Below are positions 3,429 through 18,344 of a stretch of 64,000 nucleotides of DNA, piece after piece. The stretch comes from Myxococcales bacterium (GTDB taxonomy: Bacteria; Myxococcota_A; Polyangia; Haliangiales; Haliangiaceae), in NCBI GenBank assembly GCA_016707895.1, contig JADJGV010000002.1, forward strand, positions 463,695 through 527,694, in the 5' to 3' direction. The position numbers and the translations under genes are program-made. The notes under the pieces are model-generated. The model did no database searches. It was given only the letters and a program-made list of their open reading frames with translations, and was not told the DNA's origin. Position 1 is the first letter of the stretch. Each line of letters opens with the position of its first letter.

Positions 3429-3644
3429 ATGGCCAAGCTGACCGGTACGATCCAGAAGAGCGACCTCGAGGGAGGCCACTGGTTGCTCGTCACCGCCAAG
3501 GGCGAGCAGTACCAGCTCGTCGGCGCCAAGGGCGTCAAGGCCGGCCAGGAGGTCGTCGTCGAGGGCACCGTCGACCGCGGCGCGATGGGCATCGGCATGA
3601 CCGGCCCGACGTTCACGGTGAAGAAGATCTCGCCGAAGAAGTAG
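3429..3644 (+). CDS. Small conserved hypothetical protein (71 aa)
   Basis: ORF with strong GC3 bias; protein-like sequence MAKLTGTIQKSDLEGGHWLLVTAKGEQYQLVGAKG... No obvious SD. Confidence 0.45.
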   Translation: MAKLTGTIQKSDLEGGHWLLVTAKGEQYQLVGAKGVKAGQEVVVEGTVDRGAMGIGMTGPTFTVKKISPKK

Positions 3645-3651
3645 CCAGTAG

Positions 3652-3993
3652 CTACGGCCGCGCGGCGCCCGGTGGATGTGCCTGGCAGCGATCGGCCCAC
3701 GGCATCTCGAGCAACGACGCCGCGCCGAGATCGACGCCGCACACGTCGCAGCGGCCGTAGCGGTCGTCGTCGGCGTCGAGCCACCGGCGCCGCTGTTCGA
3801 CCTGCTCGAGCGCGGCGCGCAGGATCTCCTCGGGGCGAGCCCCCGGCTTGGCGTCGAGGCCGAGCGCGCGCAGCAGCCGATCGCCGTCGGTGCCGGCCAT
3901 CAGCTCGGCCAGCTTGGTCGCCAGGTCCTGGCCGCGGCGCATCAGGCCGCGGCGGAGCGTGACGCTGGTGGGGGGATCGAAGCGGTTGGTCAT
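3652..3993 (-). CDS. TraR/DksA-family C4 zinc-finger protein
   Basis: 113-aa C-terminal portion of ORF 3652..5391 beginning MTNRFDPP. CDVCGVDL...MPWADRC four-Cys motif. ATG (cat at 3991-3993) overlaps the stop of the upstream gene (ATGA). Confidence 0.7.
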   Translation of the reverse strand: MTNRFDPPTSVTLRRGLMRRGQDLATKLAELMAGTDGDRLLRALGLDAKPGARPEEILRAALEQVEQRRRWLDADDDRYGRCDVCGVDLGAASLLEMPWADRCQAHPPGAARP

Positions 3994-5042
3994 CGGGCCT
4001 CGGGCAGGGTGGACAGCAGCGCCTCGGCGGCGCGGGTGACGTCCGCCGGGCTGCCGCCCGAGGCCGGGAAGCGCTGCGCGACATGCCACAGCACGTGGCC
4101 GTCGCGATTGTCGACCATCGTCATCTCCAGGTACAGCGCCGAACGCCCGCGGCGTGGCGCGTCCGGGCGCTGGCTCCACTCGGTCGTCGGGCCCGCCTGC
4201 CAACCGGCCGGGCCGTAGGGATCGCGCGGGCCGACGTACAGCTCGATGCGCGGGTCGAGCATGTGCGGCACGACCCGGCCCGGGAACGTGCGCAGCAGGT
4301 GATCGGCGAGGTGCGCGCTGGTGCGCCCGACCTCGAACGCGACGTTGCCCGCGCGGGCCAGGCCGTGCACCGCGACCCGCCCGGTCGCGACGGCGGCGTC
4401 GGCCACCGCGTCGGCGGCGCGGGCCAGGCTGCCGCCGCCCTTGTGCTTGCTCTTGGCCAGCGCCACCGCGACGACGACCGCCACCACCACCACCGCGGCG
4501 ATCACCAGCACCTTGACCGCGGCGTTGTCGCCCGCGGGATCCTCGCCGACGTACGCCCAGCCGCCGACGTACAGCGTCGCCTCGGCGCCCGACGCGCCCA
4601 GCCGCGCCGGCAGCGGCGGCTGCGGCAAGCCGCCCAGCCGCGCGGCGGCGTCGTGGTAGCCGGCCAGCACGGTCTGCGTCGCCAGCAGCTGCTCGGGGGC
4701 CATCGCCCCGTGAGGCGCGCCGTCGTCGCCGATGAATGTGCCGTCCCACCGCAGCTGCGCGCCAGGCAGGTAGCCGCGCTGGTAGAGCGCCGTGGTGGCG
4801 GCGCCGGTCAGCGCGCTCTCCGCGGCCAGCCGCAACGCCTCGGGATCGCCGCGGCGGCCGTCGGTCCACACCGCCAGATCGATCGGCAGCACGTCGACCC
4901 GGGTGACGCCGGCGGCGTGGCCGGCGAGCCGATGATCGACCGTCGCCACCGGCCGCGGCCAGGAGGGTGAGCACGCCGCCACGAAGCTGGCGGCCGCGGC
5001 GAGGGCGACCGAGCGTCGGCGCAGGCCGGTCATGCTCAGCAT
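3990..5042 (-). CDS. Hypothetical membrane-anchored lipoprotein
   Basis: ORF 3990..5141; internal start MLSMTGLRRRSVALAAAASFVAACS (lipobox-like), one TM helix VLVIAAVVVVAVVVAVALA. Translationally coupled to the TraR-like gene. Confidence 0.6.
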   Translation of the reverse strand: MLSMTGLRRRSVALAAAASFVAACSPSWPRPVATVDHRLAGHAAGVTRVDVLPIDLAVWTDGRRGDPEALRLAAESALTGAATTALYQRGYLPGAQLRWDGTFIGDDGAPHGAMAPEQLLATQTVLAGYHDAAARLGGLPQPPLPARLGASGAEATLYVGGWAYVGEDPAGDNAAVKVLVIAAVVVVAVVVAVALAKSKHKGGGSLARAADAVADAAVATGRVAVHGLARAGNVAFEVGRTSAHLADHLLRTFPGRVVPHMLDPRIELYVGPRDPYGPAGWQAGPTTEWSQRPDAPRRGRSALYLEMTMVDNRDGHVLWHVAQRFPASGGSPADVTRAAEALLSTLPEAR

Positions 5043-6308: not shown

Positions 6309-7231
6309 GCGGCGCGCTCGCTGTGGCGGATGCGCGGGTCGATCCAGCCGTAGGCCAGGTCGACCAGCAGGTTGAACAGCACGAGGAAGCCGACGTAGAA
6401 GACCAGGAGGCCGGTCAAGACCGGGTAGTCGCGGCTGGTGACGCTGTCGACGAAGTAGAAGCCCAGCCCCGGGATCTGGAAGATCTTCTCGACGACGAAC
6501 GAGCCGCTGATGAGCCCCGCGGTGGCCGGCCCGAGGTAGCTCACCACCGGCAGGAGCCCGAGCCGCAGCCCGTGCCGCCACACGACGCCGCGCTCGCTCA
6601 CGCCCTTGGCCCGCGCGGTGCGGATGTAGTCGGCGCCCAGCGTCTCGATCATGCTGGCCCGCGCCAGCCGCGCGATCGTGCCGGCGTAGATCAGCCCCAG
6701 CACCGCCGCCGGCGCCAGGTAGCCGACGACGCCGTCGGCGCGCGCCGCCGGCACCCAGCCCAGCTCCAGCGCCAGGTAGCGGATCGCGATCGGGCCCAGC
6801 ACCAGCGACGGGATCGAGATGCCGATCAGCGCGACGCTCATCGCCGTGTAGTCGACCCAGGTGTTCTTGCGCGCCGCCGCCAGCACGCCGAGCAGCGTGC
6901 CGAACACCGCGGCGAACCCGATCGCCATCAGCCCCAGCGTCAGGCTGTACGGGAAGTGCCGCTTGATGATCGCGCCGACGGTCTCGGGCCGCTTCATCGA
7001 GTGGCCGAGGTCGCCGCGGGCCAGCCCGCTCATGTAGCGCCCGTACTGCTGCCACAGCGGATCGTGGAGGTGGTAGCGGTCCTCGATGTTGCGCTGCACC
7101 GCCGGCTGCAGCCGCCGCTCGCGCGAGAACGGCCCACCCGGCGCCGCGTGCAACAGCAGGAACGTGATCGTCGCGACCGCCGCCAGCACGGCGACGCCGC
7201 CGGCCAGGCGACTCACGATCAGGCGCAGCAC
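6305..7231 (-). CDS. ABC transporter permease, OppB/DppB family
   Basis: 308 aa; MLRLIVSRLAGGVAVLAAVATITFLL..., typical OppB topology and EAA loop (ETLGADYIRTARAKG). Confidence 0.85.
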   Translation of the reverse strand: MLRLIVSRLAGGVAVLAAVATITFLLLHAAPGGPFSRERRLQPAVQRNIEDRYHLHDPLWQQYGRYMSGLARGDLGHSMKRPETVGAIIKRHFPYSLTLGLMAIGFAAVFGTLLGVLAAARKNTWVDYTAMSVALIGISIPSLVLGPIAIRYLALELGWVPAARADGVVGYLAPAAVLGLIYAGTIARLARASMIETLGADYIRTARAKGVSERGVVWRHGLRLGLLPVVSYLGPATAGLISGSFVVEKIFQIPGLGFYFVDSVTSRDYPVLTGLLVFYVGFLVLFNLLVDLAYGWIDPRIRHSERAA

Positions 7232-7848: not shown

Positions 7849-7967
7849 GGCATCTGCATCGGTCGGGCCAGTAAAGTTGCCCAGTGATTCAGCATGGTTG
7901 CCAGGGTGTACGTGTCAGCCGCTCGCCAGCGTCCGGTGATGTTTCGACGCCGCCCCGCGCTCACCCG

Positions 7968-13250: not shown

Positions 13251-13853
13251 ATGCAGCCACCTCCTCCAGGCGCGCCGCCGGGCGGCTATCCACCGCCGGG
13301 CTATCCACCGCCGGGGTATCCGCCGCCGCCGGGCTACGGCTATCCGCCGCCGCCCCGGAAGCGGTCGCTCTTGTGGCTGTGGATCGTGCTCGGCGTGGTC
13401 GGCGCCGGCCTGGTGATGGTCGCGATCCTGGCGGCGGTCGTGGTGCCCAAGGCCGACGAGTACGTGGAGCGGTCCAAGCGCATCGAGGCCGAGCTCAACC
13501 TCCACGCGATCGGCAGGGGCGCGAAGGTCGGCTACGAGGAGACCGGCCGCTTCCCCGAGGGCGACGCCGCGTTGACGCCGGCCGCCTCGTGCTGCGAGGG
13601 GCCGAACCACAAGTGCGCGCCCGACCCGGCGCTGTGGCGCGGCGAGCCGTGGGAGTCGATGTACTTCGAGATGAACCGGCCGCACTACTTCCGGTACTCG
13701 TACCGCGCGTCGGCCGACGGCCAGAGCTTCACCGCCACCGCCGTGGGCGACCTCGACTGCGACGGCGAGGAGGTGGTGTTCACGGTCACCGGCACCGCCG
13801 TCGGCGGCAATCCGGAGCTGTCGGAGGTCGTGCGGCCGACCAACCGCGACTGA
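13251..13853 (+). CDS. Pilin-like bitopic membrane protein with PPGY-rich N-terminal tail (paralog 2 of 3)
   Basis: 200 aa with the same architecture (PPGYPPPGYPPPGYPPPPGYGYPPPP, LLWLWIVLGVVGAGLVMVAILAAVVVP, ASCCEGPNHKCAPDPALW, DLDCDGEE). Confidence 0.75.
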   Translation: MQPPPPGAPPGGYPPPGYPPPGYPPPPGYGYPPPPRKRSLLWLWIVLGVVGAGLVMVAILAAVVVPKADEYVERSKRIEAELNLHAIGRGAKVGYEETGRFPEGDAALTPAASCCEGPNHKCAPDPALWRGEPWESMYFEMNRPHYFRYSYRASADGQSFTATAVGDLDCDGEEVVFTVTGTAVGGNPELSEVVRPTNRD

Positions 13854-13885: not shown

Positions 13886-14464
13886 GTGCAGCCAGGGCCG
13901 CCACCGTCGCCGTCGGGGTATCCGCCACCGGGCTACTACCCGGGGTATCCGCCGCCCGGCGGTCCGCCGCGACGGTCGTCGCTGCTGTGGCTGTGGATCA
14001 CGCTGGGCGTCGTCGGCGCGGTGGCCGTGATCGGCGTGCTGGCCGCGATCGCGATCCCGTCGTTCGTCAACTACCAGCGCAAGGCCAAGGCCGTCGAGGC
14101 CGAGCTCGAGCTGCGGCGGATCGGCCACGCGGCGATCATGTACTTCGACGAGCACGGCCGGTTCCCCGCGGCCGCGGCCGGCCCGACGCCGGCGACGCCG
14201 TGCTGCGCCGGACCTGACCACAAGTGCGCGTCGGTCATCGACGACTGGGCCGCCGAGCCGTGGCGGACCCTCGGCGTCACGATGCTCGAGCCGCACCGCT
14301 ACCAGTACACGTTCACGCCGGGCGCCGATGGCAGCTCGTTCACGGCGACGGCGATCGGCGACCTCGACTGCGACGGCGACGCGTCGGTGTTCACGCTGAC
14401 CGGCACCGCGGTCGGCGGGGCGGCCCGGCTCGACGAGGTGGTCCGGCCCGCGCACATCGACTGA
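13886..14464 (+). CDS. Pilin-like bitopic membrane protein with PPGY-rich N-terminal tail (paralog 3 of 3)
   Basis: 192 aa; GTG start. PSGYPPPGYYPGYPPPGGPP, LLWLWITLGVVGAVAVIGVLAAIAIPSF, ATPCCAGPDHKCASVIDDW, DLDCDGDASV. Confidence 0.75.
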   Translation: MQPGPPPSPSGYPPPGYYPGYPPPGGPPRRSSLLWLWITLGVVGAVAVIGVLAAIAIPSFVNYQRKAKAVEAELELRRIGHAAIMYFDEHGRFPAAAAGPTPATPCCAGPDHKCASVIDDWAAEPWRTLGVTMLEPHRYQYTFTPGADGSSFTATAIGDLDCDGDASVFTLTGTAVGGAARLDEVVRPAHID

Positions 14465-14530: not shown

Positions 14531-16594
<2,064 letters not shown>

Positions 16595-16620
16595 TATCGC
16601 TCGCGAATTCGCTCGCCGTG

Positions 16621-16640
16621 CGTCGCAGGAAGGGACACTT
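16621..16640. repeat. REP-like inverted repeat copy 1 (ggAAGGGACACTTTCCcacg)
   Basis: Reverse complement of the copy at 17414-17433; lies just outside the tnpA_REP stop. Confidence 0.7.
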
Positions 16641-16663
16641 TCCCACGCCGTAGCGCGGCGAAA

Positions 16664-17338
16664 CTACTCCGCTTTTGGGAGCCAAAGCGGCTCCCCGTCC
16701 CGCGCGGAGGTCCCGTCCGGCCGCTCCACGCGAAGCCGATAGCGCGGGGCTCGAGCGGAGCCTGGCTCCGTGCTGCTCGCTCGCACGTGCGCGGCGACCG
16801 TTTCGCAGTAGCGCGTCGCGCGCTCAGCGGTCGTCGCGCCCAGCGCGAGGTACCACGCGCTCGGGGTCCACAGGTCGCGCGGGACCATCGACGTGCGCCC
16901 GGCGTGCAGCGGTCCCGTGGACCAGAGGTGGCCGAGCGGGTCGGTGACGACGCCAGCACGATACGCGTTGACGTCGTTGTAGATGGTCGCCGTCGCCAGG
17001 TAGGCGTCGTCGAGGATCGGCTTGGAGTGAAACCGCTCCTCGAACAACTTGCCGGTGGCGTCGCGCGCGTGGTTGCGGACCTGAGCGTAGCGAAGGCAGG
17101 TCCGATGGATCAATACGCGCAACGCATCGGGGCCGGGCGGGACCGCGATCATGTGCACGTGGTTCTCCATCAGCGTGAGCTGATGCAGGCGGCTCGCGCT
17201 CGTCTCCAGGCCACGTGCCAGGCATCCGATGAAGCGCGTGCGATCGGCGTTCGTCGAGAACAGGCGACGACGGTTGTTGCCGCGCAGGTAGATGTGATGA
17301 GGGACGTTGGGGATCACCAGGCGCGCTTGTCGGGGCAT
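16664..17338 (-). CDS. REP-associated tyrosine transposase (RAYT; IS200/IS605-like Y1 HUH transposase)
   Basis: Internal start M39 of ORF 16664..17452 (MPRQARLVIPNVPHHIYLRGNNRRRLF...), HUH motif HVHMIAV, catalytic Tyr region ATIYNDVNAYRAG. Confidence 0.75.
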   Translation of the reverse strand: MPRQARLVIPNVPHHIYLRGNNRRRLFSTNADRTRFIGCLARGLETSASRLHQLTLMENHVHMIAVPPGPDALRVLIHRTCLRYAQVRNHARDATGKLFEERFHSKPILDDAYLATATIYNDVNAYRAGVVTDPLGHLWSTGPLHAGRTSMVPRDLWTPSAWYLALGATTAERATRYCETVAAHVRASSTEPGSARAPRYRLRVERPDGTSARDGEPLWLPKAE

Positions 17339-17413
17339 GACGCGGGTTTCGGCCGCTTGCATCTGCGGTTGCCATTCGCGCGAGAAGCTCTGGAACCCAG
17401 TGATCTTAGGAGC

Positions 17414-17433
17414 TTGGCTGGATGGAAAGTGTC
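17414..17433. repeat. REP-like inverted repeat copy 2 (gatGGAAAGTGTCCCTTTtc)
   Basis: 14-nt core is the exact reverse complement of 16623-16636; lies upstream of the tnpA_REP start. Confidence 0.7.
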
Positions 17434-17480
17434 CCTTTTCGGAACGCAACACGCCAAAAAAACGTAGCGATCGTCTGATC

Positions 17481-18344
17481 TTAGGAGGGGGGATCCTGTC
17501 CCAACACGGGCAGGGCCTTGGCGTGGCGGGGGCGGGGGGCGGGGGCGACGGAGGGGCGCAGGTCGGGGGCGCGCTCGGCCCAGGCGCGGGCGACGTCGGG
17601 GTCGAGGAGGTGGGAGGGGCGGACGTTGCGGAGGGCGTTGGCCATGATGGCGCGGACGTGGGGGTTGGTCTGCTCGAGCTGGGCGAGCAGGGCGGTCATG
17701 GCGTCGCGCTGGAGGCCGTCTTGGCTGCCGCACAGGTTGCACGGGATGATCGGGAAGGCGAGCTCGGCGGCGAGGGTGGCGATGTCGCGCTCGGGGCACT
17801 CGATCAGCGGGCGGATGACGTCGAAGCGATCGTCGTCGGTGCGGTAGCGGGCGGGCATGGCTTGCAGCTTGCCGCTGTAGAAGAGGTTCAGCAGGAACGT
17901 CTCGAGCGAGTCGTCGCGGTGGTGGCCGAGCGCGATCTTGTTGCAGCCGAGGCGCTCGGCGGCGGTGTACAGGATGCCGCGGCGCAGGCGCGAGCACAGC
18001 GAGCAGTAGGTCTGCGAGGCGTCGAGGCGATCGGTGACGACCGAGTAGGTGTCCTCGCGCAGGATCTCGAAGCGCTGGCCGCTGGCCTCGAGGAACGCGC
18101 GCAGCGGGGCGCCGTCGTAGCCGGGCTGCACCTGGTCGAGGTGCACCGCGACGAGCTCGATCGCGAACGGCAGCCGCGGCGCCAGCTTGGTCAGCAGGTG
18201 GAACATCACGTAGCTGTCCTTGCCGCCGGACATCGCGACCATGATGCGATCGCCTGGCGCGAGCAGCTGGTAGCCCTCGCAGGTGCCCTTGACCTGGCGG
18301 TAGAGCAGCTTCTCGAGGCGGCGGAGCTCGGACATCGGCGGCAT
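17481..18344 (-). CDS. ttcA: tRNA 2-thiocytidine(32) synthetase TtcA
   Basis: 287 aa; PP-loop SGGKDS and CxxC motifs (CSLCSRLRRG, CNLCGSQ). C-terminal 7 codons are encoded by the right terminal IR of the RAYT element. Confidence 0.85.
   Translation of the reverse strand: MPPMSELRRLEKLLYRQVKGTCEGYQLLAPGDRIMVAMSGGKDSYVMFHLLTKLAPRLPFAIELVAVHLDQVQPGYDGAPLRAFLEASGQRFEILREDTYSVVTDRLDASQTYCSLCSRLRRGILYTAAERLGCNKIALGHHRDDSLETFLLNLFYSGKLQAMPARYRTDDDRFDVIRPLIECPERDIATLAAELAFPIIPCNLCGSQDGLQRDAMTALLAQLEQTNPHVRAIMANALRNVRPSHLLDPDVARAWAERAPDLRPSVAPAPRPRHAKALPVLGQDPPS

Follow-up and report, generated by a model that had tools for sequence, protein, structure and literature searches.

Only one mechanism has been characterised for the Y1 HUH fold, the single-strand chemistry called "peel and paste", and the RAYT-like genes that encode such proteins are as a rule viewed as non-mobile genes that pass on by vertical descent. 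The closest described systems are the TIRtrons and their TIR-associated tyrosine transposases, or TIRYTs (Di Nocera, De Gregorio & Rocco 2013, BMC Genomics 14:522; PMC3733652). A GGGGWSAS motif is common to the terminal inverted repeats (TIRs) of several, not all, TIRtrons, and away from the gene some genomes have TIR copies, as dimers or in clusters, while others have none (PMC3733652). REPtrons and REPIN-RAYT systems have been described by Nunvar 2010 (PMC2817692), Bertels & Rainey 2011 (PMC3116915) and Bertels 2017 (PMC5581495), and Nunvar reported duplication of the 3′ end of the gene together with its downstream repeat (PMC2817692). Repeats can also enter coding sequence: in an analysis of intragenic REPs, slightly more than 10% of the counted GTAG and CGTC repeats lay at the ends of coding regions (PMC3733652).

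Here we analysed a 64-kb stretch of myxococcal DNA (the window). A 938-bp segment at positions 16565–17502 forms an element between the convergent genes for an S9 peptidase and TtcA, and both of these neighbours stop within its outer repeats (Table 1). The segment is probably a TIRtron, in which a RAYT-like Y1 (HUH) transposase of the TIRYT clade is encoded by a single-copy gene between its cognate long terminal inverted repeats. The element type is known already, and the present locus is a well-documented further example rather than a new system. As in the published TIRtrons, a RAYT-like Y1 gene lies between long TIRs, not REPs, which keep a fixed distance to the coding sequence, and the core found here, GGGGACAG, fits GGGGWSAS (PMC3733652). 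The locus differs from them in several respects: no Myxococcota are included in PMC3733652; the subfamily in the window is shorter, without the long domain that most of the listed TIRYTs have at the C-terminus; each arm is a tandem pair of units, and the two neighbouring coding sequences have their 3′ ends formed by the outer units; and the cassette at this locus shows strain-level exchange.

Table 1. Positions of the element, its repeat units and the flanking genes in the window.
Feature	Position	Strand	Evidence and remarks
S9 family (Dpp5-like) peptidase gene	14531–16594	+	Pfam Peptidase_S9, 6.7e-61; NCBIfam Dpp5, 540 bits (cutoff 900)
Outer-left TIR unit	16564–16629	+	Core GGGGACAGGATC, 16564–16575; nhmmer profile match 16564–16616, E 2e-11; conserved in L149, L155, L156
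Inner-left TIR unit	16619–16701	+	Core AAGGGACACTTTCC, 16630–16643; inverted-repeat arm 16619–16643; profile match 16642–16689, E 0.022
TIRYT-type Y1 (HUH) tyrosine transposase gene, 224 aa	16664–17338	-	Pfam Y1_Tnp, 23.8 bits (cutoff 23)
Inner-right TIR unit	17358–17448	-	Core 17424–17437; profile match 17426–17367, E 0.053
Direct-repeat copy 1, TGATCTTAGGAG (element strand: CTCCTAAGATCA)	17401–17412	+	11 nt past inner core
Outer-right TIR unit	17436–17502	-	Core GGGACAGGATC, 17492–17502; profile match 17502–17445, E 2e-8; conserved in L149, L155
Direct-repeat copy 2	17476–17487	+	4 nt past outer core; contains ttcA stop codon
ttcA (tRNA 2-thiocytidine synthetase)	17481–18344	-	NCBIfam TtcA, 337 bits (cutoff 272); match ends at residue 252 of 287

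The inner inverted repeat is a perfect 14-mer, which reaches 25 nt at 80% complementarity when extended. With up to 2 mismatches allowed it has just two sites in the 64 kb, and two matches were obtained in 0 of 100 shuffled sequences. The outer inverted repeat (16565–16575 on the plus strand, 17492–17502 on the minus strand) extends to 16 nt at 88%. Taken alone, the outer pair is at chance level, with at least two matches (up to 1 mismatch) in 41 of 100 shuffles. We accepted it because the distance from outer to inner core is exactly 65 nt on the left as on the right, because the outer repeat is kept in the orthologous loci L149, L155, L011 and L156, and because a profile built from 52 repeat units of related loci matches both outer units (E values in Table 1). 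With this profile the window yields four units and no more, all of them flanking the gene, and exact and mismatch searches of the 64 kb with three motifs returned only the flanking copies. The initial annotation of this DNA had listed a transposase gene, called a RAYT, with its HUH motif and catalytic Tyr, bracketed by inner 14-bp repeats and imperfect outer repeats, and a direct repeat present twice at the right end; every one of these sequence features was located in the window.

Comparison of the units shows that the nested repeats are two head-to-tail TIR units of about 65–67 nt in each arm, in which the inner pair corresponds to the canonical TIRs of the family and the outer pair to a second tandem copy. 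Each unit starts with a core GGG(G)ACA(G/C), consistent with the published motif; the variants are GGGGACAG (outer-left), tGGGACAG (outer-right) and aGGGACAC (inner). Two tandem units per arm also account for the 12-nt direct repeat, which was matched in 0 of 100 shuffles, as a part common to the units: most of the 57 listed units have a CTCC(W)A..GATC block behind their core. A target-site duplication was considered for the 12-nt repeat and rejected, since each of the two tandem units, like many other units, has the block behind its core. The spacing between outer and inner cores is 67 nt in L011 and 68 nt in L149, L155 and L156. The inner-left core ends 32 nt past the transposase stop, within the family range of +10 to +150, and its unit overlaps the last transposase codons; the inner-right core begins 97 nt upstream of the ATG.

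The arms are about 79 nt long in the window, and 79 nt at 84% complementarity in L011. We rejected the reading of the two 79-nt arms in the window as one long inverted repeat, because the stretch between the cores scored −2 against −8.5 ± 3.8 in shuffles, a marginal difference. Hairpins suggested by GGGG..CCCC, GGGAC..GTCCC and GATC..GATC gave no folding signal in single units (z about 0), and none of the single units and arms was significantly stable relative to shuffles (z −0.4 to +2.1). A scan of positions 16000–18000 for sigma-70 promoters and intrinsic terminators found neither, and an Rfam search of the same interval, at E up to 1, gave no match.

We surveyed the family at 65 related metagenomic loci (37–100% identity). 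The motif GGG[AT]CA is present between −200 and −80 at 63 of these loci, with a peak at −97 to −118, an inverted core follows at +10 to +150 past the stop at 60, and the best upstream/downstream inverted repeats are typically 60–90 nt long. The survey shows an architecture of TIR, gene and TIR that is fixed at 60 of 65 loci, with the same core about 100 nt 5′ of the ATG and, inverted, 3′ of the stop. Units also occur away from the gene. Inverted doublets of 140–180 nt that lack a transposase were found at L031, L035, L041, L056, L083, L099, L116 and L144, and L156 carries two elements of 2+2 units without a transposase. Among the matches listed, the motif lies on at least seven contigs of one MAG and at least three of another. 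Inverted doublets fold stably (z −8 and −9), and a GTAG-headed hairpin with a 7-bp stem, GTAGATC-GGGGACAG-GATCTAC, was seen in one other MAG only. A scan of GTDB genomes with GGGGACAGGMTCN{0,1}TACC returned at least 119 stretches, most of which are chance singletons from unrelated phyla; these figures are lower bounds, and the scan did not reach the source species. A literature search with the core strings retrieved only unrelated primers. The element may be inactive in its source genome, the window showing the four flanking units alone.

The outer repeats supply the last codons of both neighbouring genes, as can be read directly. The S9 gene ends in CTG CTG GGG ACA GGA TCT ACC CCT CGA ACC CGC TGA, so that its last 10 codons (LGTGSTPRTR) and its stop (16592–16594) fall within the outer-left unit. 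On the minus strand, ttcA ends in GTG TTG GGA CAG GAT CCC CCC TCC TAA, its last 7 codons (LGQDPPS) and its stop (17481–17483) being encoded by the outer-right unit. In at least 15 orthologs TtcA has an ancestral tail, ALP[IV]ARGG[RK]LHLPVVD(S) followed by the stop, whereas the tail in the window clade is [LW]GQDP[PT][ST], the core read in frame. S9 orthologs outside the window clade have short basic tails, W[LI]DR[YW]..K(K) and then the stop, against LGTGSTP[RA]TR within it. (L095, suspected from its GTGSTP tail to be an S9 ortholog, proved to be unrelated.) L153, which is without the element, has a TtcA tail of the ancestral type, and in L011 the element is present with both native stops retained. 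The comparison shows that in this lineage the ancestral C-terminal tails and stops of both neighbours have been replaced by repeat-encoded ones. The initial annotation had proposed that both C-termini were remodelled by repeats that provide their last codons and stops, and had asked whether orthologs lacking the element end identically; the ortholog tails compared here differ from those of the window clade, and the proposal stands. In this lineage S9 and ttcA were each fused by deletion, at the 3′ end, to the outermost TIR unit on their side. Intragenic REPs and the palindromic elements of Rickettsia are likewise repeat units read in frame within host proteins (PMC3733652); the present element differs in that it caps both convergent neighbours of a transposase gene and in that the ancestral tails can be reconstructed. 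The history by which repeats replaced the native tails and stops of two housekeeping genes is thereby open to reconstruction.

Identical transposase proteins are encoded on 12 contigs, without exception in one context, and the proteins P0014 and P0017 likewise have a single context each. The order ttcA, transposase, S9 is also found in L011, where ttcA and S9 differ by 17–30% at four-fold sites. Judged from these comparisons the locus is old and syntenic. The suggestion of a REPIN-like unit caught in a coding context needs correction in so far as the capture is not a fresh one: the gene is single-copy, has one context and is syntenic in so divergent a locus. Transposases were also looked for beside ttcA in L154 and L151/L152, and none was present.

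The cassette itself has a different history from its flanks. Between the window and L149, four-fold sites of ttcA and S9 diverge by 0.08, those of the transposase gene by 0.51. The flanks are 95–100% identical at the nucleotide level among related strains (about 96%), and transposase alleles under near-identical flanks are only 64–66% identical. A third allele is found in L155; the three are mutually 64–78% identical and no closer to one another than to family members at other loci. Identity falls right after the stop of ttcA and, on the other side, some 6 nt beyond that of S9, both points lying within the outer TIR units, and boundaries in the outer units were obtained in two independent strain comparisons. 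The breakpoints are resolved to about 10–30 nt, the one on the S9 side being some 25 nt inward of the outer core. Since the flanks are near-identical, the transposase alleles divergent and the drop located at the outer units, the comparison shows an exchange, among closely related strains, of the cassette between the outer-core regions. The breakpoint data are compatible as well with ordinary homologous recombination in conserved TIRs or coding tails.

Homologous recombination would also generate the alleles if the gene were domesticated and immobile, with the TIRs acting as cis elements, namely its own promoter or operator and the 3′-end and stop signals of its neighbours. We consider this unlikely, though it fits several observations. 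The fixed distance from TIR core to ATG over the full identity range of the family suggests an embedded expression signal; the gene keeps its place and occurs once per genome; distant family members have neighbour genes in common; the window holds no further copies; and the break on the S9 side does not coincide exactly with the core. Against domestication, the catalytic residues of the HUH motif and the tyrosine are invariant in 27 of 27 family members, doublets without a transposase have spread in relatives, including L156 of the same clade, and the exchange boundaries lie within outer TIR units on both sides in both strain comparisons. In addition, L011 carries a 183-nt duplication of the 3′ end of the gene and its arm, of a type linked to RAYT activity. 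A TIRtron remains the reading that we prefer.

The predicted protein of 224 aa starts at the ATG at 17338 (gene callers choose the ATG at 17362, which gives 232 aa). Its HUH motif (N59-H60-V-H62) and Tyr120 are the residues found to be invariant in the alignment of 27 family members. Members of the subfamily are about 224–235 aa long and conserve a C-terminal motif, R-x-E-R-P-D-G-x-x-A-R-E. An AF2 model of the transposase has a pLDDT of 88, and its best match in a fold search of the PDB is TnpA-REP of E. coli (4ER8, E 3e-7), followed by the TnpA structures of IS608 and ISDra2. In BLASTP comparisons with sequences from Additional file 5 of Di Nocera 2013, the published TIRYTs aba 2776, pfs 148A, sml 1152, pca 3049 and sml 4509 are 32–35% identical to the transposase (E 3e-31 to 4e-22); of the true RAYTs, pfs 3939 matches at E 5e-4 and E. 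coli RayT gives no match. By sequence similarity the transposase groups with the TIRYT clade, not with the RAYTs.

This grouping bears on the initial description of the locus as a classical REP/RAYT element, or REPtron, in which the repeats would be REP palindromes or REPINs spread by the RAYT in high copy through the genome. There is much in common with such systems: a single-copy, RAYT-like HUH/Tyr transposase gene with inverted cognate repeats at a mostly stable, conserved chromosomal position; non-autonomous, REPIN-like inverted doublets in related genomes that fold as long hairpins; the GTAG-headed hairpin unit of one MAG; the duplication in L011 of the 3′ end with its downstream repeat, as Nunvar describes; and the best structural match itself. 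Moreover, the NCBIfam RAYT equivalog (NF047646) matches all 27 family members and outscores the IS200 model for each of them. Every one of these matches is, however, below cutoff, that of the window protein reaching 33.7 bits where 80 are required, and in sequence the protein is much nearer to TIRYTs than to RAYTs. The repeats are TIR units of 65–90 nt rather than palindromes of 20–40 nt. The units in the window have neither GTAG head nor stable hairpin (z −0.03 to +0.9), units and arms folding like shuffles (z −0.42, +0.89, −0.03), and no additional copy exists within the 64 kb. A classical REP/RAYT element is therefore improbable, and the description does not hold in that form.

More improbable still is an autonomous insertion sequence of the IS200/IS605 type, newly inserted in the convergent gap. 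Such elements share with the present one the Y1 HUH fold and its catalytic residues, the compact 938 bp with terminal repeats looks IS-like, and the GC3 of the transposase gene (0.86) is below that of its neighbours (0.97). IS200/IS605 elements, however, have subterminal hairpins, no TIRs, multiple identical copies and often tnpB, none of which applies here: TIRs are present, tnpB is absent, the identical protein keeps one context on all 12 contigs, and the position is syntenic with L011 despite the divergence there. The NCBIfam transpos_IS200 model gave no match to the window protein. Chance matching in GC-rich DNA, as the source of the inverted and direct repeats, can be practically dismissed: the outer 11-mer alone is not significant and many other inverted repeats of 12–16 nt and like quality occur within the same 1.3 kb, but the inner 14-mer and the direct repeat did not arise in 100 shuffles, the 65-nt spacing is exact and symmetric, and the features are kept across orthologous and paralogous loci.

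For the TIRtron reading, a mechanism can be proposed by analogy with IS200/IS605 and TnpA-REP. The enzyme would bind and cleave single-stranded DNA at the TIR units and, in trans, would mobilise the inverted doublets of TIR units that lack a transposase. To our knowledge the characterised Y1 transposases all recognise hairpins, which counts against this reading, since single TIR units form no stable hairpin. More tentatively, and with rather less than even confidence, we suggest that the transposase itself could swap the whole cassette among near-identical strains at GGGGACAGG cores. The locus would then be a site-specific "allele swap" hotspot, and the TIR units would serve as portable ends that offer a stop codon in whichever of the three frames is read, and perhaps a start codon too, repeatedly capping neighbouring genes and marking rearrangement breakpoints in high-GC genomes of this kind.

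The locus extends a little-studied class, the TIRtrons and their TIRYTs, to the Myxococcota with a clean comparative data set. Three alleles this divergent, in flanks this similar, bear on the question raised for REPIN/RAYT systems of whether such genes are vertical passengers or are themselves mobile. For annotation, odd short C-terminal tails in high-GC genomes, such as GTGSTP.., GQDPP.. and GDRI, can be repeat-encoded; one and the same core is read by different genes in all three frames, as GTGS.., as GQDP.. and as GDRI followed by a stop.

Reading of region 16300-17800 and a repeat finder recovered every sequence feature named in the initial annotation: the inner and outer inverted repeats, the direct repeat and both stop codons. 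The inner 14-mer and the 12-nt direct repeat each occur only at their two sites in the 64 kb, and neither was matched in any shuffle. The outer 11-mer alone is not significant, as two matches with at most one mismatch were obtained in 41 of 100 shuffles. Nonetheless, each outer core is placed exactly 65 nt outward of the inner one, left and right alike, and this symmetric spacing, together with the comparisons below, validates them as genuine. Scans of the element region for promoter-like and terminator-like sites and for Rfam families gave no match.

Coordinates of the repeats and genes in the window, and of the transposase-less elements in the related locus L156
Feature	Position	Strand	Remark
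Inner inverted repeat, AAGGGACACTTTCC	16630-16643 and 17424-17437		perfect 14-mer, extends to 25 nt at 80%; repeat finder
Outer inverted repeat, core GGGACAGGATC	16565-16575 and 17492-17502		16 nt at 88%; repeat finder
Direct repeat, TGATCTTAGGAG	17401-17412 and 17476-17487		12 nt
S9 peptidase gene (Dpp5-like)	14531-16594	+	ends ...LLGTGSTPRTR, stop 16592-16594
ttcA	17481-18344	-	ends ...VLGQDPPS, stop 17481-17483
Transposase ORF	16664-17338	-	224 aa from family-typical MPR start
L156, transposase-less elements with 2+2 TIR units	4421-4728 and 6816-7180		bracket CoA-ligase-type gene

The nested repeats are tandem terminal inverted repeat (TIR) units. Outer and inner cores are spaced by 65 nt (window), 67 nt (related locus L011) or 68 nt (loci L149, L155 and L156), approximately the length of one unit. 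Searched with a profile built from 52 units (71 nt each), the 64 kb yield exactly four units (outer-left, E 2e-11; outer-right, 2e-8; inner-left, 0.022; inner-right, 0.053) and no further copy apart from a marginal match (E 0.15). The latter, at 7849-7914 on the minus strand, lies where two co-directional ORFs are separated by 66 nt of lower GC content (...ACCCTGGCAACCATGCTGAATCACTGGG...) and may be a decayed solo unit. The sequence after the core reads (T)ACCCC-TCC-AAC/TAA...GA(G/A)ATC across the 57 distinct units collected. The direct repeat, CTCCTAAGATCA, is this post-core block, present once each in the outer and inner unit of the upstream arm, and its interpretation as a target-site duplication was rejected for that reason. 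The two inner cores show three deviations from the common core, identical in both (GGGACAGGATCC to GGGACACTTTCC), and the two arms of one element therefore stay matched; GGGACACTCTCC-like cores also occur in more distant family members.

The central ORF barely reaches Pfam Y1_Tnp (23.8 bits, cutoff 23) and scores 33.7 bits against the NCBIfam RAYT equivalog, well under its cutoff of 80. Across 27 aligned homologs, its HUH motif (N59-H60-x-H62) and Tyr120 do not vary. E. coli TnpA-REP (4ER8) ranks first in a PDB profile search and is also the top match to the AlphaFold model (pLDDT 88; E 3e-7, target TM 0.71), followed by IS608 and ISDra2 TnpA. On these scores, residues and model matches, the product is a Y1 HUH transposase of RAYT-like kind. 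Residues 190-224 (window 16664-16768) carry a subfamily motif, Y-x-R-R-[LIV]-E-R-P-D-G-x-x-A-R-E, in which R203, R206, P207 and A212 are invariant; confidence in this segment of the model is low (pLDDT about 50). Published TIRYTs lack the motif.

Di Nocera et al. (2013; PMC3733652) set RAYTs, which are flanked by REP palindromes, apart from TIRYTs, which together with their long terminal inverted repeats form TIRtrons. Several TIRtron TIRs share the motif GGGGWSAS, which the window core GGGGACAG matches, and some TIR families occur in moderate copy number, frequently as dimers (PMC3733652). By BLASTP against the sequences printed in Additional file 5 of that paper, the window protein is 32-35% identical to TIRYTs aba 2776, pfs 148A, sml 1152, pca 3049, sml 4509, tkm 1558 and gsu 2396 (E 3e-31 to 4e-22); RAYT pfs 3939 gave E 5e-4 and E. 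coli RayT no match. Single units and whole arms in the window fold no better than shuffles (z -0.42, +0.89 and -0.03), and are therefore TIRs rather than REP palindromes. The REP/RAYT assignment in the initial annotation thus survives in part: a RAYT-like Y1 HUH gene is bracketed by inverted repeats, but TIRYTs are its closer BLASTP relatives, the RAYT model score is far below cutoff and hairpins are absent. We conclude that the element is a TIRtron. The kind is known, while this Myxococcota subfamily has not been described before. Myxococcota are absent from PMC3733652, and a literature search for the core strings returned only unrelated primers. Its capture of gene ends and strain-level exchange of cassettes merit specialist attention.

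Homologs are 225-235-aa "transposases" from MAGs and metagenomes of Myxococcales, Kofleriaceae and Haliangiales; every related sequence used here comes from a MAG or a metagenome contig. At 50% identity, no more than 59 clusters pass E 1e-30, compared with 12,301 for the wider superfamily at E 1e-3. The core flanked the gene on both sides, in inverted orientation, in all of the loci fetched first. A metagenome scan added 80 loci, 65 with enough flank for TIR counts. GGG[AT]CA lies at -200 to -80 of the start in 63 of these 65, with a sharp peak at -97 to -118, and an inverted core 10-150 nt past the stop codon in 60; the best inverted repeats between upstream and downstream flank usually span 60-90 nt. 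Since the inner pair in the window lies at -97 and +32, it is the canonical family TIR; the outer pair (-164 and +99) forms an additional layer outside it. In distant members (40-50% identical), downstream neighbours are constant across many metagenomes, with tails ...RKTIWVPNKILNLIV (L177, L185, L191, L192, L201) and ...FWHPTYLPFVRGQL (L193, L205, L212, L225, L230), which indicates long-term positional stability of their transposase genes.

The S9 and ttcA stops both fall within outer units, and translation must run into these units because neither gene has an earlier in-frame stop. TtcA orthologs in the clade share the tail ...HAAALP[IV]ARGG[RK]LHLPVVD(S), whereas the window protein and its closest relatives (≥95% identical) end in ...ALP[VL][LW]GQDP[PT][ST], an in-frame reading of TGGGACAGGATCC. 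S9 orthologs end with W[LI]DR[YW] and 3-10 mostly basic residues; those of the window clade (≥88% identical) end in LLGTGSTPRTR or TLGTGSTPATR, the core in another frame. These differences bear out the proposal that both C-termini were remodelled, and the outer units would now serve as functional 3′ ends of the two genes. Locus L153 (ttcA, a trypsin-like gene, S9) lacks element and core motif and has an ancestral-type TtcA tail. In L011 the element is present, with the ttcA stop 54 nt ahead of the outer unit and the S9 stop abutting it; this restricts capture to the window lineage, where on the ttcA side it requires loss of about 13 codons plus spacer.

Gene-end capture recurs within the family. 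The CoA-ligase-type gene of L156 ends in GDRI, the third frame of the core, a neighbour gene in L021 ends in EGTGSGVVGARN, and an unrelated 642-aa ORF in L095 ends in GTGSTPLTP, the repeat-encoded peptide of the window S9. In the metagenomic loci, the stop of a coding-like ORF falls within the outermost unit for 10 of 58 upstream and 19 of 53 downstream sides (approximate counts, ORFs filtered by GC3). The L095 ORF ends at a solo arm (6613-6700) of two tandem units, with neither inverted partner nor transposase. The L156 stop, TAG, lies inside a core (GGG GAC AGG ATC TAG), and at the second L156 element the two divergent genes have their called ATG starts directly at its ends (CAT/GGGG...CCCC/ATG). 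P0257, a 694-aa S9 homolog, switches frame in its last third and passes a TIR unit in another frame (...GDRIHPSNPLILQSNF), probably through a frameshift or assembly error.

The identical transposase occurs on 12 contigs and in each of them lies between ttcA and S9; the other homologs examined have one context each. L011 (Myxococcales MAG GCA_016717005.1) retains the order ttcA-transposase-S9, with a 61% identical transposase, despite four-fold-site divergence from the window of 0.31 in ttcA and 0.17 in S9, so the locus is old. L149 is far closer in its flanks (TtcA 95%, S9 97% identical; four-fold divergence 0.08), yet its transposase is only 66% identical, with a saturated four-fold divergence of 0.51, and L155 (TtcA 96%) carries a third allele (64%). 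Sliding identity, 95-100% in the flanks, drops to 27-80% from ~16,600 to ~17,490; alignments put one break directly behind the ttcA stop and the other about 6 nt beyond that of S9, each within an outer unit. Chimeric assembly is argued against by independent assemblies (L159, L160) with the same alleles in the same context. In-situ divergence is ruled out by flank versus allele identity: alleles at the locus are 61-78% identical among themselves and no closer to each other than to P0014, a homolog from another locus and genome (62-66%), so the whole two-plus-two-unit cassette was replaced. The exchange may have been catalysed by the transposase at the cores, or may reflect homologous recombination within the conserved outer units.

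A scan of one genome per GTDB species returned at least 119 stretches, mostly chance singletons. Among the matches listed, those in Myxococcota include non-autonomous copies, inverted doublets (140-180 nt) whose arms enclose no gene (L031, L035, L041, L056, L083, L099, L116, L144) and which fold as long hairpins (L099, z -9.3). At least 7 contigs of MAG JANNBP01 carry the motif, one beside a family transposase (L115), and so do, among the matches listed, at least 3 of a Haliangiales MAG, one with a transposase (L139). In MAG GCA_039809545.1, whose S9 is 88% identical to that of the window, a single gene lies between two elements that lack a transposase (308 and 365 bp), the first of which folds with z -8.1. 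Here ttcA and S9 are on separate contigs (L152 3848-3863; L156 4421-4450) with new neighbours and no transposase, but keep the core-derived tails VWGQDA and TLGTGSTPATR, which suggests rearrangement or loss at the element. By analogy with the IS200/IS605 and TnpA-REP paradigm, the enzyme would recognise TIR units on single-stranded DNA, cleave through Tyr120 and could mobilise doublets in trans.

L011 also contains a 183-nt tandem duplication (3600-3973) of the last ~75 nt of the transposase gene and the whole downstream two-unit arm; Nunvar et al. (2010; PMC2817692) described the same kind of 3′-end duplication for rayt genes absorbed into BIMEs. JANNBP01 units (L056, L097, L099, L115, L116, L144, L146) are preceded by (G)TAGATC and so form a perfect 7-bp stem, GTAGATC-GGGGACAG-GATCTAC, whose GTAG head recalls GTAG-tagged REPs; conservation of the stem does not extend to other genomes. 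Two adjacent paralogous ORFs on the plus strand (13251-13853 and 13886-14464; 200 and 192 aa), with proline/tyrosine-rich N-termini (PPGYPPPGY...) followed by a hydrophobic segment and conserved cysteines, lie beside S9 in the window and in related loci too.
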